In this document: positions 1,845 to 26,756 of the stretch, piece after piece | How the letters are laid out: every line of letters begins with the position of its first letter | Numbering within the stretch: position 1 is the first letter of the stretch | From: a virus | Lineage: Duplodnaviria > Caudoviricetes | Virus record (IMG/VR): IMGVR_UViG_3300009164_000304 | Location: 1 to 26,756 of that record | Length of the DNA stretch: 26,756 nt | Direction: 5' to 3' (one strand) | Translations under genes and position numbers: made by a program | Notes under the pieces: model-generated | The model's database searches: none | What the model was told of the DNA's origin: nothing | Seen by the model: the letters and a program-made list of their open reading frames with translations, nothing else

Positions 1845-3653
1845 ATGTCTAAGATAAGCACGTATCCATTCGCAACACCACCAACCTTGTCAGACTATGT
1901 TATTGGGACAACTCCCGGTAACTCAAATGCTACAAAGAATTTTAGGATATCAGACATCCTAACGTTAGGCGGTGCGAATTTATACGTGCCTTATACGGGC
2001 GCTACAGGAAGTGTAACACTAGGGGCATATAATATATCAGCCAATCAGTTAATAAAGATAGGTGGAACATCTTCCGAATTTTTAAAAGCAAACGGTTCTG
2101 TAGACTCTAACACATACGTTACGTCTGCAGTAGCTTTAGGATTTGTGCCATATACGGGTGCAACAGGAAACGTTACCCTAGGCACCCATAGTATCACGTC
2201 AGACTCTTTTATTAAACAGGGTGGAGTATCTAGTCAGTTCTTAAAAGCAGACGGTTCTATTGACTCAACAACCTACTTGTCGTCAGCAGTTTTAGCAGGT
2301 TACGTTCCTTACACGGGAGCAACCACAAGTGTTACACTAGGAAGTTATAACATATCAGCTACTCAGATAATTAAGATAGGTGGAACGTCTTCTCAATTCT
2401 TGAAGGCAGATGGTTCTATTGATTCTAGCACGTACCTAACATCGGCAGCATTGTCTGCATACGTTCCTTATACAGGAGCGACGGGAAGCATAACACTAGG
2501 AGCCAATAACATTACTGCCAATCAGTTTATTAAAGCAGGAGGAACATCCTCTCAATTTTTAAAGGCAGACGGTAGTTCAGATTCAAGTTCATATGTTCCA
2601 TACACGGGCGCTACAGGCAATGTAACGCTAGGTGCTAACAGCATCACAGCAAGTTCAATCATCAAAAGTGGAGGGACATCTAGTCAATTCTTAAAGGCAG
2701 ACGGTTCGATTGATTCTAGTACGTACCTAACATCTGCGTCTATATCGGGACTAGTTCCATATACGGGGGCAGTAAACGACGTGACACTAGGACTTTATGC
2801 ACTGACCGCTAATAATGTATCTGCAGTAAGTAGTTTAAATACAAACGGGCCATTAAAGATGCTTGGAGTTCCGGGAACTATTGGTCAAATTTTAGTATCT
2901 CAGGGCGCAAGTGGTGCTCCACTTTGGTCAGATCATACTGTATACGTCCCTTATCTAGGTGCTACAGGAGATGTAAATATAGGAGTGCACTCATTTGTTT
3001 CGAATGATGTTACGGGAACCAACGGATTAAATACAAGTGGGCCTATAAAATTAACAGGAAGTGCGGGAACAGCAGGACAACTATTGATGTCAAACGGAGC
3101 CGGAGTTGCTCCAACTTGGAGTAGCACGGTTGTAAATGCTAACTATGGTCTATTTGCTCAAACATCAGACTCAACACCTGTAACTGCTACAACAGTTGAA
3201 ACAACAATTTTAGGAGCAGGCGTAGGCACATTAACTGTTCCTGCAAACGGATTTTCTATTGGAGGTTCATTTCAAGCATCTTTAGATGGTATAATTACTT
3301 GTTTAAGTTCAGCAACATTACATATTCGTGTTAAAACATTAACAGGGGTCATCCTTGCTGATACAGGTATAATTGCTATGGAAGCTGCAACTTCAAAATC
3401 ATGGTTAATAAATTTATATTTTACAATAAGGAACATTGGTGGAACAACAGTAGCATCAATTTCATCAGGTGGATTATTTTCTTACATTAAAAATTCAGGA
3501 ATAAACTTTGAAGGATATGTATTAAGTACAGTAAATAACACAACATTTGACACAACAATAAACAATACACTTGTAATCACTGCACAATGGAATAGTACAA
3601 ATGCAGGAAATTCAATATTTACAAGAAACTTTACTCTAGCTAAAATATATTAA
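1845..3653 (+). CDS. Fibre-like virion protein (tail or head fibre) with tandem repeats
   Basis: 602 aa, rich in G/T/S/A. N-terminal anchor (KISTYP...TKNFRISD), seven VPY[T/L]GA-initiated repeats, beta-rich C-terminal domain. Confidence 0.75.
   Translation: MSKISTYPFATPPTLSDYVIGTTPGNSNATKNFRISDILTLGGANLYVPYTGATGSVTLGAYNISANQLIKIGGTSSEFLKANGSVDSNTYVTSAVALGFVPYTGATGNVTLGTHSITSDSFIKQGGVSSQFLKADGSIDSTTYLSSAVLAGYVPYTGATTSVTLGSYNISATQIIKIGGTSSQFLKADGSIDSSTYLTSAALSAYVPYTGATGSITLGANNITANQFIKAGGTSSQFLKADGSSDSSSYVPYTGATGNVTLGANSITASSIIKSGGTSSQFLKADGSIDSSTYLTSASISGLVPYTGAVNDVTLGLYALTANNVSAVSSLNTNGPLKMLGVPGTIGQILVSQGASGAPLWSDHTVYVPYLGATGDVNIGVHSFVSNDVTGTNGLNTSGPIKLTGSAGTAGQLLMSNGAGVAPTWSSTVVNANYGLFAQTSDSTPVTATTVETTILGAGVGTLTVPANGFSIGGSFQASLDGIITCLSSATLHIRVKTLTGVILADTGIIAMEAATSKSWLINLYFTIRNIGGTTVASISSGGLFSYIKNSGINFEGYVLSTVNNTTFDTTINNTLVITAQWNSTNAGNSIFTRNFTLAKIY
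1983..3126 (+). repeat. Intragenic tandem repeat: five type-A units (53,53,53,44,53 aa) and two type-B units (about 60-64 aa)
   Basis: Units start at 1983, 2142, 2301, 2460, 2592, 2751 and 2943. Type A: VPYTGATGxVTLG..IKxGGTSSQFLKADGSIDS. Type B: VPYxGA..LNTxGPxK..GTxGQxLxSxGAxxAPxWS. Confidence 0.9.
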
Positions 3654-4950: not shown

Positions 4951-5221
4951 GAAGGTTAAACTTAAGATAATAGAGGCGGGGTACATTGCGGTAGATGAAC
5001 TGATTTCAATAGCAAAGGAGACTATAATAAAGAACGGACTTGATGGGGACATATCTGCAGACAAATTAAAAAATGCAGCCGCTACAAAGAAGTTGGCTAT
5101 ATTTGATGCGTTTGAGATTCTTACTAGAATAGAAGCTGAAAAGGATGCGCTTGACGCTATTGTCAACGGCGTAAGTAAAACAGACACAAAACAAGGATTT
5201 GCAGAAAGAAGGTCAAAATAG
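4940..5221 (+). CDS. terS: Putative terminase small subunit
   Basis: 93 aa helical protein directly upstream of and overlapping TerL; ADKLKNAAATKKLAIFDAFEIL motif. Assigned by synteny. Confidence 0.55.
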   Translation: MDNRKVKLKIIEAGYIAVDELISIAKETIIKNGLDGDISADKLKNAAATKKLAIFDAFEILTRIEAEKDALDAIVNGVSKTDTKQGFAERRSK

Positions 5222-7445
5222 CATATACACAATCGTCAAGGATTACATACAGCCACAGGCAGTCTCAAAGAAAAACGGGAACAGGTCATGGCTATATGGC
5301 TACGACGAGCAGTACGACGTTATTGTAATCTCAAAGACCGGGCAGATCGGTGAAATCTATAACATATCAGGCATACACATAGCGTTGCCACCCGCACCAA
5401 AGGACTGTCTTCAAAGACACAACTCAAGTTTTGAGCAATATTGGGAGAGGGAGGACTTTCCAAAGGAACTATCCAAGATATCCTCGATATTTCAATGGAA
5501 CGAGATGTCTTCTGAGTTCAAGAACAGGTGGGTTGGGTACATTGAGGAACAGTTTGACTACAGAGAGCAAGGTTTTTGGTTTAAAAATAATGGTAAGAAG
5601 ACTTACGTTACGGGTTCTCATTGGATGTACCTACAGTGGTCAAGTATTGACGTGGGTTATCCCGACTTTCGTGAGGCAAATAGGATATATTGGATTTTTT
5701 GGGAGGCTTGCAGGTCTGACTTTAGGTCGTTTGGATTAATATACCTAAAGATAAGGCGTTCAGGGTTCTCTTTCATGTCGTCATCTGAGTGTATAAACAT
5801 AGGGACGTTGGCCCGTGATGCTCGTGTTGGTATACTATCAAAGACGGGTGCGGATGCTAAGAAGATGTTTACCGACAAGGTGGTGAATATTAACAACAGG
5901 CTTCCGTTCTTCTTTAAGCCGATAATGGACGGGATGGATAAACCTAAAACAGAGTTATCTTTCAGGATACCTGCGTCCAAGATCACTAAAAAGAACATGT
6001 ATATAACCGAGGAGGAGGAGATAGAGGGGTTAGATACCACTATAGATTGGAAGAATACAGAGGAGAACTCGTACGATGGTGAGAAGTTACTATTTTTAGC
6101 GCACGATGAGAGCGGTAAATGGACTAAACCTAATAATATTCTGAACAATTGGAGGATTACCAAGACCTGTCTTAGGTTGGGTAGCAAGATAATTGGAAAG
6201 TGTATGATGGGTTCAACCTCAAACGCACTCAGCAAGGGTGGAGACAACTTTAAGAGCCTTTACGGTGACTCTAAGGCCACCACTAGGAACGCAAATGGCC
6301 AAACTAAAAGTGGACTATACTCCTTATTCATTCCGATGGAGTGGAACATGGAGGGATTCATTGATATATACGGATGGCCCGTGCTTAGGAAGCCAAAGGA
6401 GCCTGTTCGTGGGGTAGACGGGAACATGATTAAGAACGGTGCCATAGACTATTGGGAGGCCGAGGTTGAGTCTCTTAAGAATGATGCCGACGCATTGAAT
6501 GAGTACTACAGACAGTTCCCTAGGACAGAGTCTCATGCGTTCCGTGATGAAAGCAAGGAGGCATTATTTAACCTTACTAAAATTTACCAACAGATAGACT
6601 ACAACGACGGTATGATTACGGCACACTACCTAACCCGTGGGTCTTTTAGTTGGAAGGATGGTATAAAGGACACTCAGGTTATATTCTCTCCCGACTCCCG
6701 TGGTAGGTTCCTAGTAAGTTGGACTCCACCAAAGCATTTGCAAAATAATGTACACACAAGGAACGGTGTAAGGTATCCGGGAAATGAGCACATTGGCTCA
6801 TTTGGTTGTGACTCCTATGATATATCTGCCGTAGTTAGCGGGCGTGGGTCTAACGGCTCCCTGCACGGACTAACTAAGTTCCACATGGACGAGGCTCCTG
6901 TAAACGAGTTCTTCTTGGAGTACATCGCTAGACCACAGACTGCAGAGATTTTCTTTGAAGAGATTTTAATGGCCTGTGTATTTTACGGTATGCCGATACT
7001 TATAGAGAACAACAAGCCAAGGCTACTGTATCACTTCAAGAATAGAGGATACAGGGGATTCTCTTTGAACAGGCCGGACAAGCACTACTCAAAGTTGTCA
7101 AAAACTGAGAGAGAACTAGGCGGGGTACCAAACTCATCTGAGGATATAAAACAAGCGCATGCGTCTGCGATAGAGTCGCATATTGAGAAGTACGTAGGAA
7201 TTGATTTTGAGGGAAAGTATAGGGATAGTGACGAGATGGGAACAATGCCGTTCACAAGGACACTAGAGGATTGGGCAAAGTTTGACATAAATGATAGGAC
7301 AAAGTTTGATGCCTCTATTAGTTCAGGCTTGGCTATCATGGCTAATCAAAAACATCTGTACGTTCCCGAGAAAAAAGAATCAAAAATTAGCATTAACTTC
7401 GCAAGGTATAGAAACGATGGTACATCAAGTCAAATAATTTCATGA
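5199..7445 (+). CDS. terL: Terminase large subunit (start codon uncertain, TTG)
   Basis: Walker A-like LKIRRSGFS, Walker B FLAHDESGKW, motif C GSTSN, nuclease GCDSYD and late acidic FDASI. Directly precedes the portal. Confidence 0.9.
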   Translation: MQKEGQNSIYTIVKDYIQPQAVSKKNGNRSWLYGYDEQYDVIVISKTGQIGEIYNISGIHIALPPAPKDCLQRHNSSFEQYWEREDFPKELSKISSIFQWNEMSSEFKNRWVGYIEEQFDYREQGFWFKNNGKKTYVTGSHWMYLQWSSIDVGYPDFREANRIYWIFWEACRSDFRSFGLIYLKIRRSGFSFMSSSECINIGTLARDARVGILSKTGADAKKMFTDKVVNINNRLPFFFKPIMDGMDKPKTELSFRIPASKITKKNMYITEEEEIEGLDTTIDWKNTEENSYDGEKLLFLAHDESGKWTKPNNILNNWRITKTCLRLGSKIIGKCMMGSTSNALSKGGDNFKSLYGDSKATTRNANGQTKSGLYSLFIPMEWNMEGFIDIYGWPVLRKPKEPVRGVDGNMIKNGAIDYWEAEVESLKNDADALNEYYRQFPRTESHAFRDESKEALFNLTKIYQQIDYNDGMITAHYLTRGSFSWKDGIKDTQVIFSPDSRGRFLVSWTPPKHLQNNVHTRNGVRYPGNEHIGSFGCDSYDISAVVSGRGSNGSLHGLTKFHMDEAPVNEFFLEYIARPQTAEIFFEEILMACVFYGMPILIENNKPRLLYHFKNRGYRGFSLNRPDKHYSKLSKTERELGGVPNSSEDIKQAHASAIESHIEKYVGIDFEGKYRDSDEMGTMPFTRTLEDWAKFDINDRTKFDASISSGLAIMANQKHLYVPEKKESKISINFARYRNDGTSSQIIS

Positions 7446-9877
7446 AAGATATAGTAATAGACATATTATCCTCTGTTTTCCCTAGTCAGTTAGCAACCGA
7501 CGCAGAGAAGGCATCTGATGCTTATGGGTTACAGATTGGACAGGCCATTCAGTACGAGTGGTTTAGAAAGGATGGGAACTCCTGTAGGTATTACGGGCAA
7601 TGGAGAGAGTTCCATAGGCTAAGGCTTTATGCTCGTGGTGAACAGTCCATACAGAAATATAAAAATGAGTTGGCCATAGATGGCGACCTTTCATACTTGA
7701 ACCTAGATTGGACTCCTGTCCCGGTACTACCAAAGTTTGTAGATATCGTAGTTAACGGCATGTCAGACAGGTTATTTAAGGTGAAGGCGTACGCACAGGA
7801 TGCGATGTCTCAGGCAAAAAGAAGTAAGTATCAGGATATGCTTGAGGGTCAGATGGCTGCCAAGGATATCCTTACAACAATACAGGAAAATACGGGAGCA
7901 AATCCATTCATGATGGAGCCTGATAAACTTCCTGAGACCGACGAGGAGTTGGCGTTATATATGCAGTTGAATTACAAGCCTGCGATAGAGATTGCAGAGG
8001 AAGAGGCGATAAATACCATGTTTGATGAGAACAAGTACGACGATACACGCAAGAGACTAGACTACGACAATACGGTACTAGGCATAGCGGTAGCTAAGCA
8101 CGAGTTTCTTCTAGGGGAGGGGGTTAAAATATCCTACGTAGACCCTGCAAATGTGGTATATAGTTATACAGAAGACCCGTACTTTAGGGACTGTTTTTAT
8201 TGGGGTGAAATTAAAACGATGCCCCTAACGGAGTTGATGAAGATTGACCCGACTCTTACCAAAGAGGAACTACAGGAAATATCAATGTATAGTCAGGGAT
8301 GGTACGACTACTATAACGTGTCTCAATTTTATGAGAACAGCATGTTTGCACGTGATACGTGTACCTTGATGTACTTCAACTACAAGACCACTAAGAAGGT
8401 TGTATATAAGAAGAAGATACTTGAGAACGGTGGTTCTAGGCTTATTGAAAAGAACGACACGTTCAATCCTCCAAAGGAGATGATGGACGAGGGTAACTTT
8501 GAGAAAATTGAGAAGACTATTGACGTGTGGTACGAAGGTGTCATGGTAATGGGAACAAATATTTTATTGAAGTGGGAACTTTCAGAGAACATGGTTCGGC
8601 CAAAGTCTGCATCTCAACATGCGCTACCCAACTACGTGGCATGTGCGCCTAGGATGTATAAGGGAAGGATTGAGTCTTTGGTTCGTAGGATGATACCGTT
8701 CGCTGATTTAATTCAGGTGACACATCTTAAACTACAGCAGGTTATCGCAAGGGTTGTACCCGACGGTGTTTTCATTGACGCAGACGCATTGAGTGAGATA
8801 GACCTAGGACAGGGCAACGCATACAATCCCGAGGATGCGCTTAGGCTTTACTTCCAAACGGGTAGTGTGATCGGTAGAAGTTTTACAGGAGACGGAGACT
8901 TTAATAATGCAAGGGTTCCAATTACTCAGTTAAACTCAAACTCAGGCGCAGGGAAGACTCAAATGCTTATAGCTAACTATAACCATTACATGGACATGAT
9001 TAGGTCTGTAACAGGCTTAAACGAGGCTAGAGATGGTTCGTCTCCTGACCCAAGTTCATTAGTTGGTGTACAGAAGTTGGCCGCACTTAATTCAAACACT
9101 GCAACTAGGCACATACTTGAAGGTGGCTTATATTTATATAGGTCGTTAGCAGAGGCTTTGACCTACAGGATAGCTGACATATTAGAGTACGCAGACTTCA
9201 AGGACGACTTTGTTAACAAGATAGGGAAGTACAACGTGTCTATACTGAACGACATATCAGACCTGTACATATACGATTTTGGTATCTTTATAGAGATAGC
9301 ACCCGACGAGGAGCAGAAGGCACAACTTGAGGCAAACATTCAGATGGCCTTGTCTAAGGGAGACATTAATCTTGAGGATGCTATTGACATACGTGAGATA
9401 AGGAACCTTAAACTTGCCAATCAGTTGTTAAAAATGAAGAGGGTTAAGAAGCAGGAGCGTGAGGACAAGATGGAGATGCAGAAGCAGGCCATGACATCAC
9501 AGCAGCAGCTTAAGTCTCAGGAGATGGCCGCTCAGACTGCAATGCAGAAGATACAGGCCGAGACTCAGTCTAAGATGCAGATAATGCAGGCAGAGTACCA
9601 ACTAAGTTCTCAAAAAATGCAGGAGGAGGCTCAGTTAAAATCTCAGTTAATGAACGAGGAGTTTGGTTACAACCAACAGCTACACAATATGGAGGTAGGG
9701 AACTTATCTAAACGTGAGCAGGATAGGGAGGACGCAAAGGCTAAAAGGATTAGTCAGCAGAATACGGAGCAGTCTAAGTTAATAAATCAAAGAAAGAATA
9801 ACCTTCCACCTTTAGATTTTGAGTCAAACGAGGATAGCCTAGACGGATTCGATTTAGCTGAGTTTAACCCTAGATAA
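7442..9877 (+). CDS. Portal protein
   Basis: 811 aa, ATGA overlap with TerL. PVLPKFVDIVVNG and SVTGLNEARDG motifs, and a Q/M-rich C-terminal coiled-coil barrel as in P22/crAss-type portals. Confidence 0.85.
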   Translation: MKDIVIDILSSVFPSQLATDAEKASDAYGLQIGQAIQYEWFRKDGNSCRYYGQWREFHRLRLYARGEQSIQKYKNELAIDGDLSYLNLDWTPVPVLPKFVDIVVNGMSDRLFKVKAYAQDAMSQAKRSKYQDMLEGQMAAKDILTTIQENTGANPFMMEPDKLPETDEELALYMQLNYKPAIEIAEEEAINTMFDENKYDDTRKRLDYDNTVLGIAVAKHEFLLGEGVKISYVDPANVVYSYTEDPYFRDCFYWGEIKTMPLTELMKIDPTLTKEELQEISMYSQGWYDYYNVSQFYENSMFARDTCTLMYFNYKTTKKVVYKKKILENGGSRLIEKNDTFNPPKEMMDEGNFEKIEKTIDVWYEGVMVMGTNILLKWELSENMVRPKSASQHALPNYVACAPRMYKGRIESLVRRMIPFADLIQVTHLKLQQVIARVVPDGVFIDADALSEIDLGQGNAYNPEDALRLYFQTGSVIGRSFTGDGDFNNARVPITQLNSNSGAGKTQMLIANYNHYMDMIRSVTGLNEARDGSSPDPSSLVGVQKLAALNSNTATRHILEGGLYLYRSLAEALTYRIADILEYADFKDDFVNKIGKYNVSILNDISDLYIYDFGIFIEIAPDEEQKAQLEANIQMALSKGDINLEDAIDIREIRNLKLANQLLKMKRVKKQEREDKMEMQKQAMTSQQQLKSQEMAAQTAMQKIQAETQSKMQIMQAEYQLSSQKMQEEAQLKSQLMNEEFGYNQQLHNMEVGNLSKREQDREDAKAKRISQQNTEQSKLINQRKNNLPPLDFESNEDSLDGFDLAEFNPR

Positions 9878-9887
9878 AAAAATTCAA

Positions 9888-9908
9888 TTTTTTTGTATAA
9901 ATTTGTAA
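9888..9908 (+). promoter_or_regulatory. Bacteroidota-type promoter (TAAATTTG at 9898-9905) for the scaffold/capsid genes
   Basis: TAnnTTTG 21 nt before the ATG at 9927. 19/21 identical to 13351-13371. Preceded by the AT palindrome AAAAAAATT-C-AATTTTTTT (9876-9894). Confidence 0.65.
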
Positions 9909-9926
9909 CAATTAAAATCTAATCAA

Positions 9927-11021
9927 ATGGAAATGAAGGTAAGAGCAATCGAAATGATTGAGCCAAAAAGTGTTCAGGAGGTAGAAGAAAGTCTACTTGA
10001 TAAGCATGAACAACAGTTTGAGGATGCACAAGAAGATGTGCAGATTATTGAAAATAATGCACAAGATGATGTGCAAAATTTAGAAACAGAGTTAAAAGAA
10101 GAGGACGTTCTTTCATATATTGGTAAAAGGTACAACAAGCAGATCAATTCATTTGATGAGTTGATGGCTGAGAGACAAGAGCAGGAGCAGATGCCCGAGG
10201 ATGTTGCGTCTTATATGAAGTATAAGAAGGAGACAGGCAGAGGATTTGAAGACTTCCTTAAGTTAAAGAAGGACTTCGAGGAGATGAATCCTGACCAATT
10301 ATTAAAGGAGTATCTTTCATCTACACAGGAGGGACTTGACGAGGATGATATCGAGTCTTTGATGGAAGACTATAGGTACGACGAGGATTTGGATGACGAG
10401 TCTACCGTTAAGAAGGTAAAGATTTTAAAGAAAAAGACTATTGTTGAGGCTAAAAAGTACTTCAACTCTCAGAAGGAGAAATATAAAATGCCACTTGAGT
10501 CAAGCACGGCATCACTTTCCGATGATGAGAAGCAGGAGTTTGAAAGCTACAAGCAGTATACAAAACAGGCAAAGACTCTACAGGAGGAGAACAGTCGTAA
10601 GCGTCAATGGTTTGACCAAAAGACGGGAGAGGTTTTTGATAATGGATTCAAAGGTTTTGAGTTTAATATCAACGACAAGAAACTTACATTTTCTCCGGGG
10701 GATGCAACCGAACTTAAAAAGAATCAATCAACACCTTCAAACTTTATTAATAAGTTTTTAGACGAGAGTGGTTTAATTAAAGATGCGGTTGGATACCACA
10801 AGTCGTTGTCGATTGCAATGAACCCCGACAAGTTTGCTAGATTTTTCTACGAACAAGGTTTATCTGATGCAACTGAGGATGGGATGCGCAAGATTAAGAA
10901 TATAAACATGTCTGAGCGTAAGGCACCCGAGGTAGGAAAGATGACGGACGGAATGCAGGTGAAAGCAGTAAACCCTGATTCAGGTAAAAGCCTGAAAATA
11001 CGCAGTATAAAACGAGTTTAA
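9927..11021 (+). CDS. Putative capsid scaffolding protein
   Basis: 364 aa, very acidic and helical, located between portal and major capsid. Confidence 0.7.
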   Translation: MEMKVRAIEMIEPKSVQEVEESLLDKHEQQFEDAQEDVQIIENNAQDDVQNLETELKEEDVLSYIGKRYNKQINSFDELMAERQEQEQMPEDVASYMKYKKETGRGFEDFLKLKKDFEEMNPDQLLKEYLSSTQEGLDEDDIESLMEDYRYDEDLDDESTVKKVKILKKKTIVEAKKYFNSQKEKYKMPLESSTASLSDDEKQEFESYKQYTKQAKTLQEENSRKRQWFDQKTGEVFDNGFKGFEFNINDKKLTFSPGDATELKKNQSTPSNFINKFLDESGLIKDAVGYHKSLSIAMNPDKFARFFYEQGLSDATEDGMRKIKNINMSERKAPEVGKMTDGMQVKAVNPDSGKSLKIRSIKRV

Positions 11022-11043
11022 ATAACAATTAAAAACATTAAAA

Positions 11044-12468
11044 ATGGCAAGTGCATTATTAAATAATCCTACGTACGCCCTGCAACCGTCAGCGCAACAA
11101 GTAGCATTACAAACAAATTACATCACCAACTTCAACTTCTTGAATCAGTACTTACCTGATACCTATGAGAAAGAATTTGAGCGTTATGGTAACAGAACAG
11201 TTTCCTCATTCTTAAGAATGGTTGGCGCTGAGATGCCTTCTAACTCTGATCAGATTAAGTGGGCAGAACAAGGTCGTCTTCACATCAAGTACACCAACAT
11301 TACATCAGCAGCAGCTTTAGGTTCAGCAACAGCTACCTTCACTGTAGCAGATACAGGTGTTACCTCTAGTGCAATCAGAATCGGTCAGACCGTTATGATT
11401 CAAAACAATGCAGTAGGCGGTGGTGTTTATAACAAAGCAATCGTTACTGCGGTTCCATCTGCATTAACTTTTACAGTTGCTTACTATGAGGCAGCAGGTC
11501 AATCTTTTGCAGTAGGAACACAGTGTACTGTATTCATCTACGGTTCTGAGTTTAAGAAAGGAACCAATGGAATGATCGGTTCTTTAGAAGCACAGGATTC
11601 TATCTACAGCAACAACCCAATTATCATCAAAGATAAGTATGCGGTTAATGGTTCTGACATGGCTCAGATTGGATGGGTAGAGGTTACCACCGAGAATGGA
11701 GCAACAGGGTACTTATGGTACTTGAAGTCAGAGCATGAGACTCGTCTTCGTTTTGAAGATTACATGGAGACTGCTATGATCGAGGCCGTTCCCGCAGTAA
11801 GCGGTTCAGGTGCTGCTACAGCAGGCATGATGGGTTCTGAGGGCGTATTCTACGTTGTTAACAACCGTGGTAACGTATGGGGTGGTGGTACACCGACTTC
11901 ATTGTCTGATTGGGATTCTATCGTTAACCGTTTAGATAAGCAGGGTGCTATCGAAGAGAACGTAGTTTTCGTTAATCGTGGATTAAGTTTCGATATCGAT
12001 AACATGTTGGCCACATTAAATGGTTACACATCAGGTGGTGTTGCTCAGTCTGCATCCTTTGGTTTGTTCGACAACGACGTGAATATGGCGTTAAACTTAG
12101 GCTTCACAGGATTCCGTAGAGGTTACGATTTCTACAAGTCTGATTGGAAGTACTTGAACGACCCAACAATGCGTGGTGGTCTTAACAACAGTGCAGCTAC
12201 AGCTACAGGCACAATCACAGGTTTGATGGTTCCTGCAGGTTCTACCTCAGTATACGATCAGATCATGGGTAAGAACGCAAAGCGTCCATTCTTACATGTT
12301 AGATACCGTGCCTCTGAGGCCGAAGATCGCAGATACAAGACTTGGATTACAGGTTCTGCCGGAGGAGCACAAACAAGCGACCTTGATGCAATGGAGGTAA
12401 ACTTCTTGTCTGAGCGTTGCGTTTGTACACTTGGAGCAAATAACTTCGTATTGTTCCGTTATGGATAG
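11044..12468 (+). CDS. Major capsid protein
   Basis: 474 aa after the scaffold, followed by a strong terminator. YLPDTYEKEFERYGNR and IKWAEQGRLH motifs recalled from Bacteroidota podovirus MCPs. Codon usage suggests high expression. Confidence 0.85.
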   Translation: MASALLNNPTYALQPSAQQVALQTNYITNFNFLNQYLPDTYEKEFERYGNRTVSSFLRMVGAEMPSNSDQIKWAEQGRLHIKYTNITSAAALGSATATFTVADTGVTSSAIRIGQTVMIQNNAVGGGVYNKAIVTAVPSALTFTVAYYEAAGQSFAVGTQCTVFIYGSEFKKGTNGMIGSLEAQDSIYSNNPIIIKDKYAVNGSDMAQIGWVEVTTENGATGYLWYLKSEHETRLRFEDYMETAMIEAVPAVSGSGAATAGMMGSEGVFYVVNNRGNVWGGGTPTSLSDWDSIVNRLDKQGAIEENVVFVNRGLSFDIDNMLATLNGYTSGGVAQSASFGLFDNDVNMALNLGFTGFRRGYDFYKSDWKYLNDPTMRGGLNNSAATATGTITGLMVPAGSTSVYDQIMGKNAKRPFLHVRYRASEAEDRRYKTWITGSAGGAQTSDLDAMEVNFLSERCVCTLGANNFVLFRYG

Positions 12469-12485
12469 TATATAGTTGGAAATAA

Positions 12486-12526
12486 GGAGGGTGTCTTCAA
12501 GGACACTCTCCATTTTATTTTTTTTT
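12486..12526 (+). terminator. Rho-independent terminator after the capsid gene
   Basis: Stem GGAGGGTGTC / GACACTCTCC (one G-U pair), loop TTCAAG, followed by ATTTTATTTTTTTTT. Confidence 0.85.
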
Positions 12527-13323: not shown

Positions 13324-13357
13324 AAAGAAGGGTGCTCATTGCACCCTCTTTTTTTTT
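13324..13357 (+). terminator. Rho-independent terminator
   Basis: Stem AGGGTGC / GCACCCT with loop TCATT, followed by C and nine T. Confidence 0.85.
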
Positions 13358-22185: not shown

Positions 22186-23001
22186 ATGGCAATAGGAACA
22201 GCAACAGCAATAGCGATAGGTGGACTAGCATTAAGTGCGGGTAGCACTGCAGCATCGTTTGCACAGGCAGGAAAACAAAAACAACTACAGAGACAGGCCC
22301 ATTCAGATGCCGACAAGGCTATGCAGGAGGCAAGACATAAGTTAGAGGCAAACTACTACGATCAGTTATCTATAAAGAAGGAACCGTACGAGTTGGAGCG
22401 TGAGGCTTTGGCATCACAAGGTGCTCAGGCTATTCAGGCGGGCGTTGAGAGTGAAAGGGGTGCGGCTGCCACGGCAGGACGTGTTCAGATGGGGATGAAC
22501 GAGGCACAGGCGGGAATAAGGACAGCGCAAGGGAAGGAGATGTCTGACCTTGAGAAGTTAAGTGCAAACGAGCAGAGTAGACTACGTGACGTTAACGTTC
22601 AACTAGACTTAGGTCAGGTTGAGGGAGCACAACTTGCCGAGGCAAATGCACAAAAACTAGCTGCTGCTTCTACAACACAGGCTATGCAAGGTTTAACTAG
22701 TGTAGTACAGCAGGGTATTCAGTTAGGTGTTCCATTATATTTCCAACAAAAAGGACTAGACCCATTAACGGGTTTACCTTTAAAATCAGCACAAATGCAG
22801 TCAGCACAAGCTGCGGGGCAGTCAGTTTCACCTGTTTCATCTGAAAGTATTAGAGCGCAACCTAATACTCAAATAAATCCATTAAGTCCTTACTATCAGA
22901 ATCCTTATATTATGGCAGGATTAGGTGCACCACTTAATTCATCTCAAGATTTTAGGACTAATCCTAACACACAAATTAACCCATTCCAACTAAATTGGTA
23001 A
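22186..23001 (+). CDS. Internal virion (ejection) protein 1
   Basis: Gly/Ala-rich hydrophobic N-terminus (MAIGTATAIAIGGLALSAG) and an A/Q-rich helical body; first gene after the GNAT. Confidence 0.65.
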   Translation: MAIGTATAIAIGGLALSAGSTAASFAQAGKQKQLQRQAHSDADKAMQEARHKLEANYYDQLSIKKEPYELEREALASQGAQAIQAGVESERGAAATAGRVQMGMNEAQAGIRTAQGKEMSDLEKLSANEQSRLRDVNVQLDLGQVEGAQLAEANAQKLAAASTTQAMQGLTSVVQQGIQLGVPLYFQQKGLDPLTGLPLKSAQMQSAQAAGQSVSPVSSESIRAQPNTQINPLSPYYQNPYIMAGLGAPLNSSQDFRTNPNTQINPFQLNW

Positions 23002-23002
23002 T

Positions 23003-24823
23003 ATGAGTACTTACTATAAATACGCAGAGCGGAATGTTGATAGCCAAGTAAATTGGGGTGAGATTGGCAAGAACATGACCGACATGCTTGCGAGCGAGAA
23101 TAAGATCAGGGAGGACAAAAAGGCCGCACTTGATGAAGCATCTCGTCAGTATGGATTAAATCTATCTGAACCACCGCAGGGGACAAACACGTCCCTTAAT
23201 AGTTACGCATTAAAGTACGCAGACGACGCCCAAAGTGCTCGTCTACTACAGGATAGGTTGTTAAGGGGTGGTATACTAAAGCCTAGGGACTACGTGCTGC
23301 AGAGGCAGAACCTTACCGACGGGACTAGTGGCCTATTCAATGTAATGAAGGACTACCAAACCGAGTACGGTGTAAAGATGGAGCGTTATAAGACCGACAA
23401 GTCTCAGGATTTGGAACAGTGGCTAATGGCTCAGGCAGAAGGATTTGCTAACTTTAATAACTCTAAGCCTGTCATCAACCCAACAGACTACACGTTGAGT
23501 ATAGCCAAGATGGTAAAGAATGAGAAGACGGGCGTGATGGAGATGGACAAAGACCCCAACTCATTCACGACAGTTGCGGGTCTACAGAACAGGATTAAGG
23601 CCACGTTTGATAAGTTTGACGTACCGCAAACACTTAATGGATTTGTAAAGACAATAGGTAAGCAATTGGATGCGGTAAAACTTGTTGGAAGTGAGACTAG
23701 GACGGGAAGCATAACCGAGACACTTGATATATCAAAAAGGAAGGGATTTGGAAAGTATGCGGGAGTTTTAGATAACTTTGAGAAGGCAGAGACTGCGGCA
23801 CTAAAGTCATACCTTACCAACCCGTATAACACGTCTTCTGTACTTACAAATAGTTTAGGATTGGCACCAAACGGTGAACGCTACACGTTCTCATACAAAC
23901 CCGAGGATATTAAGCCGGGTGGTAACATTATTTTGTTAAAGGACGACGGCAAGACGGGAACTCCAATGCCAAACTTTACACCCGAGCAGGAGACTGCTGC
24001 GCTAGAACACTTGCGTACGCAGGCTAGGCTAATGTACGACAAGACTACAAACATACAGGCGGTAACCGAGCCTAGGAAACGTGAGCCAAACGAGTGGGAA
24101 TACAATGCTGCTCAGAAAGCTAAGGAAAACTTAACTGCCGCAGGAGCATGGAATCAGGTCTACACAGGCAAGACCCCTGCTGAAAAACAATCGGCTTTAA
24201 ATATATTGCTAGGAACTCCACACGCACGTGCGTTAGGATTGCAGGCAATAGATTTAGATAAAAATGGAGTATTAAATCTTAAATATGAAGACCCTAGTAA
24301 GAATCGTACAATAAAATACCTTGACGAAAACGGTAAGCCTATTAGTGGGTCAGATTGGGCGGCTATAGGAACAGAACTTACAGGAGAGGCTGATAGGAAT
24401 AAGGCAATTAGAGCAGGTGGTGGTTTAGCGGGTGGATACGGTGGAAATGTTTCTGAATTAATTTCAGCAAAAAGGACAGGCCCAACCGTTGAGACTCCTG
24501 CAAATGAGAAGTATAAGCAGATTGTAACAGGGACACCTGTTAGTACAAAGGGTAAAGAAGATACTGTAATACCTGACCTGCAGGCTAAGTTTGGTGATTT
24601 TGGGTTTACATTTGAACCTTCGGGTTATTGGGGTACAAATAATGTAAAAATTACATCACCTGATAAGTTGACTTCAATTGTAGTAGGACTTAATAATAAA
24701 AATGAACAAGACGAATTAGATGCAAATCAAAAAATAAAACAGTTCTTATCTACAAACATGACCGAGGCTAAATTAAAAGAAATACCTGCGTCTACTTTAG
24801 GCGGAAGTATGAGTAAGTACTAA
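23003..24823 (+). CDS. Internal virion (ejection) protein 2
   Basis: 606 aa hydrophilic helical protein; synteny within the podovirus ejection trio. Confidence 0.6.
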   Translation: MSTYYKYAERNVDSQVNWGEIGKNMTDMLASENKIREDKKAALDEASRQYGLNLSEPPQGTNTSLNSYALKYADDAQSARLLQDRLLRGGILKPRDYVLQRQNLTDGTSGLFNVMKDYQTEYGVKMERYKTDKSQDLEQWLMAQAEGFANFNNSKPVINPTDYTLSIAKMVKNEKTGVMEMDKDPNSFTTVAGLQNRIKATFDKFDVPQTLNGFVKTIGKQLDAVKLVGSETRTGSITETLDISKRKGFGKYAGVLDNFEKAETAALKSYLTNPYNTSSVLTNSLGLAPNGERYTFSYKPEDIKPGGNIILLKDDGKTGTPMPNFTPEQETAALEHLRTQARLMYDKTTNIQAVTEPRKREPNEWEYNAAQKAKENLTAAGAWNQVYTGKTPAEKQSALNILLGTPHARALGLQAIDLDKNGVLNLKYEDPSKNRTIKYLDENGKPISGSDWAAIGTELTGEADRNKAIRAGGGLAGGYGGNVSELISAKRTGPTVETPANEKYKQIVTGTPVSTKGKEDTVIPDLQAKFGDFGFTFEPSGYWGTNNVKITSPDKLTSIVVGLNNKNEQDELDANQKIKQFLSTNMTEAKLKEIPASTLGGSMSKY

Positions 24824-24844: not shown

Positions 24845-26756
24845 ATGAATGAAGAAGCAATAAAGGACGCATATAACTTATTTGTTCAAAATGGATACAA
24901 GAAAAGTATCGACGAGTTTAAGACCTTAATGTCTTCAACACCCGAGGCATTAAACGACTCGTATAATATATTCGTAAAAAACGGGTATAATAAAAGCATT
25001 GACGACTACAAGACGCTAATTGGTGTAAGTGGAGGTCAACGGGCACAACCTGTGCAGCCTACACAACAGGCGCAGGATATGCAGCAAGAGCAGCCTGTAG
25101 ATGAAGGGCATGCACAGCCACCATTAAAAAAAAAAGAACAACCAAGTTTTTCGGCATTGCCATTGGCAGATGGTTCGTCGGCGTTACCTACTACCCAAGG
25201 AACTCCTAGTCCATTACCTCAACCAACCGCACAGCCTGCAACACAGCCTGCTGTTAATACTGCAGTGCAACCAACCGCACAGCCAACAGGACAGGTTCCT
25301 ACTAAACCTGTAGATAATAAAGAAAAGTATTTTACCAATTGGGCAGGCGTGTTGACGCCTGATACTGTGCCAAACAGGGTAGAGAATGCTGTACAGGAGT
25401 ACACAACCGTTCCGTTAACTAAGTGGTTCCTTGAGTCTGCAGATAATATAGTTAACGCATCTAAGAACATACTGACAGGGACAGGTTTTTTTGGGGAGGA
25501 CATACCCGACACTGAAACCCCTATAACAGACGCACTGAAACAGCAACAGCAAAAAAAACAAGTTGATAAAAATGGTAACATTATAACAACTGCATTTGGT
25601 ATGTTAGGAAAAACAGGTGACGTTGTTGCATCCATTATTATAAACTCCGTGCTACCTCAAGACACGAAGAACAAGTTAATAAGTAACCTAAACAATGCAT
25701 CTGCAGCCAATAAGGAGTACCTTAAGTCAATGCAAGAGGCTGAGGGTAAGAACCAAGACACAAACATTGCGTCTAGGGCAATAAAGGGCATTGTTGGCAT
25801 GGCGCCTGACTTACTACTAGCCGCAGAACTTGGGCCACAGGCGGCAGAGGCTAAACTAGCTAAGTACGGTGAGACTATAACAAAGAATGCCGCACCTTTA
25901 TTAAAAAAACTTGTACCGAATGCGTTGGGATTAATAGAAAGAGGCGCACAGTCAGGATTTACAAAACTGATGGCTATAGAGGGCGCAGTTAAAGGGGTTG
26001 CTGAAACTAAAAAAGACGAGAATTATTTTTGGAATGGTATAAAGGGGTCTGCAGAGGGTGCACTAGAGGGCATGTACATGCACGGACTTGGTGAGGCTGC
26101 AGGCGCTGCCGCTACTCCTATAGCAAAGTTGGTGTCAAAGACCGGGGTTAACAGCGCAATAGCAACGGCTATAGCCACCCCTCTTGCAAATGCGGGAGTT
26201 TTTGCGACAGCAAAGGCGTTAAGGATGGGTATTACAGAACAGAAACTTGTGTCAGGAGAAGACCTTGCGATGGAGGCCGCAACAGGTGTTGGATTCAGTC
26301 TTTTGCATCTTGGCAGTCAGTACAAGAACCATAAAGAACTTAACCACTACTACGACAATGTACTTAAGGACGACGCCGCAGATTCATTCACTAGGGTTAT
26401 AAATGAGACAAAGGCTAATTTAGATGTGGCATACACTCCCGACCTTACACCGGAGCGTGTTAAGGAACTACAGACCGCAAGGGATGAGATAAAGGACGCA
26501 ATATTAAAGGAACCCGACCTAAAAAATAAGACCATACTAGGCAACGAGGCTATAAAAATTCAGAACCAATTAGATGCACACGCTTCTATAAAAGGAATAG
26601 TAGAGAATAAGGACTTCCTTGTAAACGAGATAGCACAGAATGAAAAATTAGATCAAAAACAGAAGGACTTCTACACAAAGAAGATAACTGCAATTGCAGA
26701 CGCATACGACACGTCTCCTCTTGGTATACAGAAGAGGGAGTTTAACAATAAGATAG
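24845..26756 (+). CDS. Large internal virion (ejection) protein 3, truncated by the window end
   Basis: Manually translated: ATG 24845 (MNEEAIKDAYNLFVQNGY...) is open for 637 codons to the window edge. P/Q/T linker followed by Gly/Ala-rich helices. Absent from the ORF track. Confidence 0.85.
   Translation, partial: MNEEAIKDAYNLFVQNGYKKSIDEFKTLMSSTPEALNDSYNIFVKNGYNKSIDDYKTLIGVSGGQRAQPVQPTQQAQDMQQEQPVDEGHAQPPLKKKEQPSFSALPLADGSSALPTTQGTPSPLPQPTAQPATQPAVNTAVQPTAQPTGQVPTKPVDNKEKYFTNWAGVLTPDTVPNRVENAVQEYTTVPLTKWFLESADNIVNASKNILTGTGFFGEDIPDTETPITDALKQQQQKKQVDKNGNIITTAFGMLGKTGDVVASIIINSVLPQDTKNKLISNLNNASAANKEYLKSMQEAEGKNQDTNIASRAIKGIVGMAPDLLLAAELGPQAAEAKLAKYGETITKNAAPLLKKLVPNALGLIERGAQSGFTKLMAIEGAVKGVAETKKDENYFWNGIKGSAEGALEGMYMHGLGEAAGAAATPIAKLVSKTGVNSAIATAIATPLANAGVFATAKALRMGITEQKLVSGEDLAMEAATGVGFSLLHLGSQYKNHKELNHYYDNVLKDDAADSFTRVINETKANLDVAYTPDLTPERVKELQTARDEIKDAILKEPDLKNKTILGNEAIKIQNQLDAHASIKGIVENKDFLVNEIAQNEKLDQKQKDFYTKKITAIADAYDTSPLGIQKREFNNKI
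25126..25209 (+). other. A10 slippery tract and overlapping -1 frame coding segment (candidate programmed frameshift)
   Basis: TTA AAA AAA AAA GAA in frame 0. The -1 frame reads KKKRTTKFFGIAIGRWFVGVTYYPRNS* (TAG 25207-25209). Confidence 0.5.

Follow-up and report, generated by a model that had tools for sequence, protein, structure and literature searches.

A conserved slip site in a giant, likely ejection, protein gene of aquatic phages and its probable short product

In Thermus thermophilus dnaX, a 9-base homopolymer within a long open reading frame (ORF) yields a full-length product and a shorter one (tau and gamma) with the same N terminus, and in other bacteria ribosomal frameshifting achieves the same result (PMC5009743). 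The phage locus described here resembles dnaX in both respects. It differs in that both other frames of T. thermophilus dnaX stop nearby and only truncate the protein (PMC5009743), whereas here the -1 frame adds a conserved tail, the +1 frame is kept open, and the gene is a phage virion gene. Similarly, a -1 shift in Escherichia coli copA and in the carboxysome gene csoS2 frees the N-terminal part of the protein as a short form (70 aa versus 834 aa for CopA), but that shift is ribosomal, CsoS2A has three new-frame residues, and the descriptions in the available text of PMC5009743 mention no conserved folded tail. The alphavirus 6K/TF pair likewise carries a hidden, overlapping -1 tail on a structural gene, and TF is found in virions (PMC5009743), although this is an animal RNA virus that uses a ribosomal shift and has no sequence relation to the present gene.

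Two phage systems are also comparable. Lambda gpG/gpGT is encoded by a morphogenesis gene, with a fixed product ratio (here a proposal) and a shared domain joined to a -1 domain (PMC5009743); the -1 domain of gpGT binds a second part (PMC5009743), and the heptamer G_GGA_AAG is also used by a sister class of the site studied here. Unlike the present case, G/GT belongs to long-tailed phages, its frame-0 product is the short one, and its gene has another position, before the tape measure gene; here, frame 0 encodes 3,698 aa and the -1 product 121 aa, and the gene follows two smaller virion-module genes, which does not fit a G/GT chaperone. In Alteromonas virus H4/4 (genes 39/40), a putative -1 shift lies at the front of a podovirus internal virion protein gene, as here, but that shift is proposed to make the internal virion protein from two overlapping genes (PMC5658483), whereas in the present gene frame 0 is unbroken and shifting would yield the short form. 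Overall, the site appears to work like dnaX or copA, outside the G/GT family and without the stimulator of a standard -1 cassette.

Literature searches, which covered open-access text, listed none that describes this recoding site. The word "frameshift" is absent from the available main text of PMC8776804, PMC13540731, PMC13434306, PMC10172136, and PMC13288928, and the available part of PMC10885494 centers on tail chaperones. We regard the site as real and conserved, and as programmed recoding that is ordinary in kind and new in place.

The giant gene and its hidden frame

The window (the whole stretch of DNA analyzed, 26,756 nucleotides of the IMG/VR record IMGVR_UViG_3300009164_000304) contains the virion module of a tailed phage, with terminase, portal, major virion protein, and tail genes (Table 1). 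The tail genes are followed by three genes of 271, 606, and >637 codons, in that order, and frame 0 of the last is open for 3,698 codons in a longer assembly (G001) of the same sequence. This layout, with three consecutive genes after the tail genes and a giant one at the end, is of the ejection type, and a three-protein ejection scheme has been described (PMC13434306); gene order and this analogy suggest that the giant gene likely encodes an ejection protein. Compared with named ejection protein families, the giant protein gave no Pfam family and two PHROGs without assigned function. In the giant protein (L119), two PHROGs of unassigned function cover residues 1076 to 1244 and 1411 to 1492, and an HExxH motif lies in the middle third. 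Elsewhere in the window, a gene at 1497 to 1838, within the lysis/fiber region, matches phrog_858 (labeled as a starvation-inducible regulator), and positions 1845 to 3653 encode a 602-aa protein with several imperfect repeats of ~50 residues, likely a fiber.

TABLE 1 Coordinates of the features discussed, numbered from the first letter of the window
Feature	Position	Strand	Basis or remark
Terminase, portal, and major virion protein genes	5199..12468	+	Indicate kinship to cultured Flavobacteriia phages
Small virion protein with hydrophobic N terminus; likely first ejection protein	22186..23001	+	phrog_13764 virion structural protein; role inferred from position
606-aa protein; likely second ejection protein	23003..24823	+	phrog_35506, function not assigned; role inferred from position
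Giant virion (likely ejection) protein gene, frame 0	24845..26756, past window end	+	3,698 aa in G001; blastp to elemoA gp21, E 1e-18
N-terminal two-repeat helical domain, common to both products	24845..25030	+	Alignment; a relative modeled with four helices (low confidence, mean pLDDT 64)
Q/P-rich linker; -1 frame closed by TGA 25102-25104	25031..25125	+	
A10 slip site	25126..25135	+	A9-A11 in 66/75 clustered relatives
-1 frame tail, 24 codons + TAG (25207-25209)	25135..25209	+	
-1 frame motif FGIAIGRWFVG (consensus YGIxFGRWFFG), predicted beta-hairpin	25150..25182	+	
+1 frame open to TAG at 25311	25136..25313	+	Stops avoided across the motif zone, as is usual in the A-run class; no conserved peptide

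The major virion protein matched 85 phage records, one of them uncultured and the others infecting Flavobacterium, Cellulophaga, or Maribacter; these matches belong to Elemovirus, Pervagoviridae, and Pachyviridae, and the cultured ones share 25 to 49% identity with it. Part of the giant protein shows homology to elemoA gp21, but blastp gave no match to the giant proteins of phi38:1, phi18:3, and Panino. Genes at the giant-gene position in phi18:3 and phi40:1 have been annotated from virion MS/MS; of the cultured phages compared, only elemoA provides a sequence homologue (gp21). Prophages were tried as a second route to the host, but 28 of 40 genome matches had frame 0 closed and look like chance matches, and the phage-like ones were short contigs in bins of mixed phyla. 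As these matches are uninformative, the host assignment rests on the cultured kin, from which we infer a host within the Bacteroidota.

Frame 0 reads the A10 run as A AAA AAA AAA after codon 94 of the giant ORF, and the heptamer A_AAA_AAA occurs in frame twice within it. An earlier sequence-only reading had singled out this run, and the analysis bore it out, the run being the sole A run of at least 9 in the window. There are also two T9 runs (12518 to 12526 and 13349 to 13357), which lie just 3' of the major virion protein gene and of the next gene and are likely terminators. After the A run, the -1 frame reads KKKRTTKFFGIAIGRWFVGVTYYPRNS and ends at the TAG. The same reading had held that this segment has no start of its own and would complete a 121-aa product, and indeed no ATG follows the upstream TGA, with 97 + 24 = 121 residues predicted; the KKK...DGS pattern that it put forward for related proteins, as a frame-0 shadow of the -1 motif, is real as well. 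The short hairpins that it saw 3' of the run did not hold up: three stretches folded no better than shuffles (z = 0.36, 0.00, and 0.45), and the longest stem starting 4 to 9 nt after the run has only 5 bp, short of the 3' stem or pseudoknot of a ribosomal cassette.

Conservation of the -1 peptide and the signals leading to it

Relatives were gathered by homology of the N-terminal domain only, not by the motif, which gave 97 unique loci and 75 cluster representatives, including the window's own copy; three loci were dropped (one nonhomologous and two at contig ends), and the cultured copies L372 to L374 and the nonhomologous L386 and L387 were excluded. In 66/75 representatives, the run was located at nt 150 to 520 of the gene (56 A10, 8 A9, and 2 A11), while no A run of at least 9 occurred at nt 520 to 1500 in any of the 75 genes. 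A motif score of at least 17 of 25 was reached in the -1 frame by 40/75 representatives, compared with 0/75 in frame 0, 0/75 in the +1 frame, and 0/71 in a downstream control; the matrix was hand-written after the peptides had been seen, and the other 35/75 representatives score below 17. Neither run nor motif was present in five representatives (L098, L112, L378, L381, and L385). The sequences are related, so that these counts and the Fisher p-value are not independent, and the N-domain tree is poorly resolved. Two tandem motif-like units were observed in the -1 tails of Panino (L123) and L091.

Within the 40 motif-scoring loci, third positions of the -1 codons vary most (1.36 bits versus 0.79 and 0.63). 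Of the codons that differ, 40% are synonymous in the -1 frame, 13% in frame 0, and 4% in the +1 frame. Not one stop was found among 351 -1 codons between run and motif, compared with 12.8% upstream and 12.0% downstream, and the -1 stop then comes 3 to 11 codons past the motif. Moreover, the -1 frame after the run is open for 16 to 43 codons in all 66 run-bearing representatives, whereas a null model that keeps the frame-0 protein and resamples its codons predicts 18.5 open frames; under the same null, 0.5 motifs are expected, compared with 37 observed. From the third-position variation, the synonymy, the stop-free frame, and the resampling null, we conclude that, as judged by sequence comparison, the -1 peptide is under selection as a peptide. 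The sequence tests proposed beforehand for a conserved recoding site with a conserved aromatic tail, namely, the run, the motif, synonymous variation in the -1 frame, and a near -1 stop, were thus all passed.

These data also bear on the possibility that an RNA or DNA signal, or a frame-0 motif, is what is conserved, with the -1 peptide as its shadow and no short protein made. Frame 0 is indeed constrained too, toward a hydrophilic linker (hydrophobic share, 0.19 versus 0.33 expected), and the local nucleotide word is well kept. However, all four bases occur at the glycine third positions, Y/F/W and I/F/L replace one another conservatively, the spacers of 2 to 92 nt are stop-free, and several different slip sites are all in phase, which makes such a shadow very improbable.

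The different slip sites were recognized from three run-less relatives (L035, L109, and L033), which keep the motif behind G_GGA_AAG, G_GGA_AAA, or A_AAG. A pattern scan for G_GGA_AAR followed by the motif returned 33 in-phase matches with frame 0 open, among 111. In addition, a motif-only scan, which covered 18 of 64 parts, found at least 120 loci, with an estimated total of ~430. The short aromatic -1 peptide is shared, in conserved form, by hundreds of related sequences from aquatic phages. Among its 114 unique matches, 113 lie inside an open frame-0 gene and one has an ATG in the motif frame; the entry sites comprise 67 A runs, 26 G_GGA_AAN, 10 A_AAG, 2 X_XXA_AAR, and 9 without class; within this last group, four have G_GAU_UUY and two seem to be chance matches. 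The N-domains vary widely between matches while the tail is kept, and all five heptamer-type contigs checked carry the same major virion protein family (51 to 58% identical). Both G_GGA_AAG and A_AAG have been reported to be prone to frameshifting in E. coli (PMC5009743). A stem of at least 6 bp starting 4 to 9 nt after the site was found in 28/36 heptamer or tetramer sequences, compared with 5.3 expected, typically starting ~6 nt downstream of the slip site; the A-run class showed no enrichment (31/61 versus 23.0 expected), and the proposed hairpin stimulator fails for that whole class as it does for the window. The convergence of unrelated slip signals on one peptide is the strongest argument that the product is made. 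A tree of the entry classes was also tried; one change fits, but with weak support. In L033, L035, and L418, the GGATCC of the stem loop recurs ~25 nt downstream at the motif start and could form a pseudoknot, and in heptamer-class loci (e.g., L418, L459, and L495), the -1 spacer contains many CxC pairs, perhaps as a shadow of the RNA stem or as a metal site.

Polymerase or ribosome at the A run

In the proposed mechanism, the A10 run would send part of giant-gene expression into the -1 frame, most likely because the host RNA polymerase adds an A, and the outcome would be a 121-residue protein in which the N-terminal domain and linker of the giant protein are followed by a basic patch and an aromatic tail predicted to form a beta-hairpin. 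On the sequence record, this short product is very probably made. For the A-run class, the balance tips slightly toward slippage mainly at transcription, and the explanation as a whole, which combines a conserved slip site, a probable polymerase route, and the 121-residue product, is the one that we moderately favor. Polymerase and ribosomal shifting may both act at the A run, and the choice between them has been narrowed, not settled.

Several observations favor the polymerase. The run lengths cluster at 9 to 10 in all three phases (51 A10, 14 A9, 2 A11, and 1 A8 of 112), which fits the 9- to 10-bp hybrid and the 9-A slippage threshold (PMC5009743). The lack of an enriched stem in the A-run class and the finding that 0/20 KKK tripeptides further down the A-class genes are all-AAA were counted on the same side. 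Stops in the +1 frame over the motif zone occurred in 3/63 A-class sequences compared with 24/45 of the other classes, where they were spread over six positions, and a T preceding AA, AG, or GA in the +1 frame of that zone was found in 3/126 compared with 32/148 cases; the classes are lineages, and these counts overstate independence. The +1 frame is thus kept stop-free in the A class, as if both other frames were entered, which favors polymerase slippage. It holds no conserved peptide in this class, however, that would account for its openness (64/66 versus 47 expected under a joint null), which was counted against our preferred explanation. The run of at least 9 A or T inside an ORF typical of transcriptional slippage is present, but near stops in both nonzero frames are not, the -1 stop coming after 24 codons and the +1 stop at 25311. 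A further point against the preferred explanation is that A runs induce less slippage of E. coli polymerase than T runs do (PMC6260861).

A ribosomal origin of the same short protein, by tandem -1 slippage at A_AAA_AAA or by sliding on AAA codons with the mRNA unchanged, is a serious competitor but seems somewhat unlikely. The sister lineages use G_GGA_AAG or A_AAG with a stem, which is impossible as homopolymer slippage; an in-frame X_XXY_YYZ heptamer is present in the window, and every A9 run also contains an in-frame A_AAA_AAA, which tells against a polymerase-only reading. E. coli ribosomes slide on AAA codons (PMC4363877), and such sliding could also explain entry into the +1 frame. Nevertheless, the stimulator of a ribosomal cassette, a 3' stem 5 to 9 nt after the site, is absent from the window and the A class, runs of A7 to A8, which would be enough for a heptamer, are rare, and A_AAA_AAG is not the form that the A class keeps.

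Cultured phages provide a further view of the run. The elemoA_7-9A gp21 gene, phi38:1, phi40:1, and Calle_1 have A10 with frame 0 intact, and their -1 tails are aromatic and Gly-punctuated but divergent, and were left outside the motif scoring. In contrast, the deposits of phi18:3, phi13:2, phi19:3, phi46:3, and Panino (L126:34786-35120, L127-L129, and L123:25700-25900) have A9, and their giant gene is annotated as two genes. Of the 24 sequencing runs listed for the phi18:3 record, 4 were compared, each in contig form. Two are DNA runs, which were flagged as potential sources of the deposited DNA and have one more A, giving A10; the other two are RNA runs and yield A9 contigs, not A11 (L372:2197; runs X8 and X12). 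Given the two DNA runs, the phi18:3 deposit likely undercalls the run by one A. The A9 in RNA lies in the wrong direction for the tail frame and argues against a simple picture in which the extra A dominates; it may be due to reference-guided decoding of SOLiD reads or to the stock. The A9 deposits suggested that Pachyviridae might depend on the shift to produce the giant protein at all. This idea was rejected for phi18:3 because its DNA runs carry A10, and 8/11 metagenomic relatives of the phi18:3 N-domain, which have an A9 to A10 run with frame 0 intact, also argue against it. The phi13:2 (L127:4119-4270) and phi18:3 (L126:34786-34983) genes have different N-domains, with near-identity starting at the A run, and from such alignments N-domains appear to be swapped at the slip site. 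No gp101 peptides were found in the available text of PMC13288928 or in the four supplements examined.

The five A9 deposits could also indicate an assembly artifact, or a tract in the genome whose phase variation turns the giant gene on and off. Frame 0 is also broken in two loci, L077 (A11) and L087 (A9), whose near-identical siblings carry A10. Such an origin is scarcely credible, as frame 0 is intact in nearly all loci, the DNA runs restore A10 for the phi18:3 record, and the heptamer classes have no homopolymer.

The short product and its meaning

An AlphaFold model of the tail is a two-strand hairpin (mean pLDDT 77, pTM 0.30); in the model of a relative, which has low confidence, the N-domain forms four helices and the tail has no defined structure. 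Searches for function by homology or fold against Pfam, PHROGs, PDB sequences, Foldseek PDB, BFVD, and ESM Atlas gave nothing usable. A tail profile search among 1.84 billion proteins returned 34, all short and 33 with the motif at the C terminus of a short N-domain protein. They were considered as possible stand-alone genes encoding the short form, but the 10 of the 34 that were looked up belong to small clusters (8 of one member and 2 of two members), best read as indel artifacts and not as evidence.

Our tentative proposal, which is the weakest step of our interpretation, is that the short form acts in assembly as an adaptor and is produced in constant proportion to the giant protein. Its shared N-domain would engage the same partner as that of the giant protein, and its hairpin tail, like the T domain of lambda gpGT, would attach to a conserved component of the virion. 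The partner of the tail is likely conserved, since the tail is conserved across phages with unrelated N-domains and giant bodies; the adaptor role is favored because the tail outlasts both, and by analogy to gpGT. Membrane anchoring by the tail is a live rival. Alternatively, the shift might only lower the amount of giant protein, with the tail as a disposal or membrane-parking tag and not a structural adaptor. Aromatic-rich protease tags exist, and the tail is C-terminal, basic, and hydrophobic. Giant ejection proteins are moreover needed in fewer copies than the adjacent proteins, 4 +/- 1 versus 12 in N4 (PMC13434306). Still, this alternative is quite unlikely, as a stop right after the run would be simpler, and the three glycines and their spacing, kept across unrelated N-domains, suggest a folded binding element.

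Taken together, the sequence evidence indicates that the giant gene likely makes both a 3,698-residue protein and a missed 121-residue one. More broadly, and with less confidence, a Bacteroidota short-tailed phage group may encode a missed small morphogenesis protein inside its giant ejection gene, with interchangeable N-domains and one universal beta-hairpin tail. Some lineages would reach this tail by ribosomal frameshifting and others by polymerase slippage; in the latter, the A run would give three products and both hidden frames would be selected. The cultured Flavobacteriia phages phi38:1, elemoA, and phi18:3 carry the run, which makes the proposal testable, and at least one reference genome (phi18:3) probably has a homopolymer error splitting the giant gene. 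If true, the finding would mean that a conserved protein has been missed in an abundant group of aquatic phages and in cultured model phages for which proteomes exist. It would also widen the range of phage recoding from capsid and tail-chaperone genes to ejection genes, and would allow two recoding routes that lead to a single product to be compared in nature.
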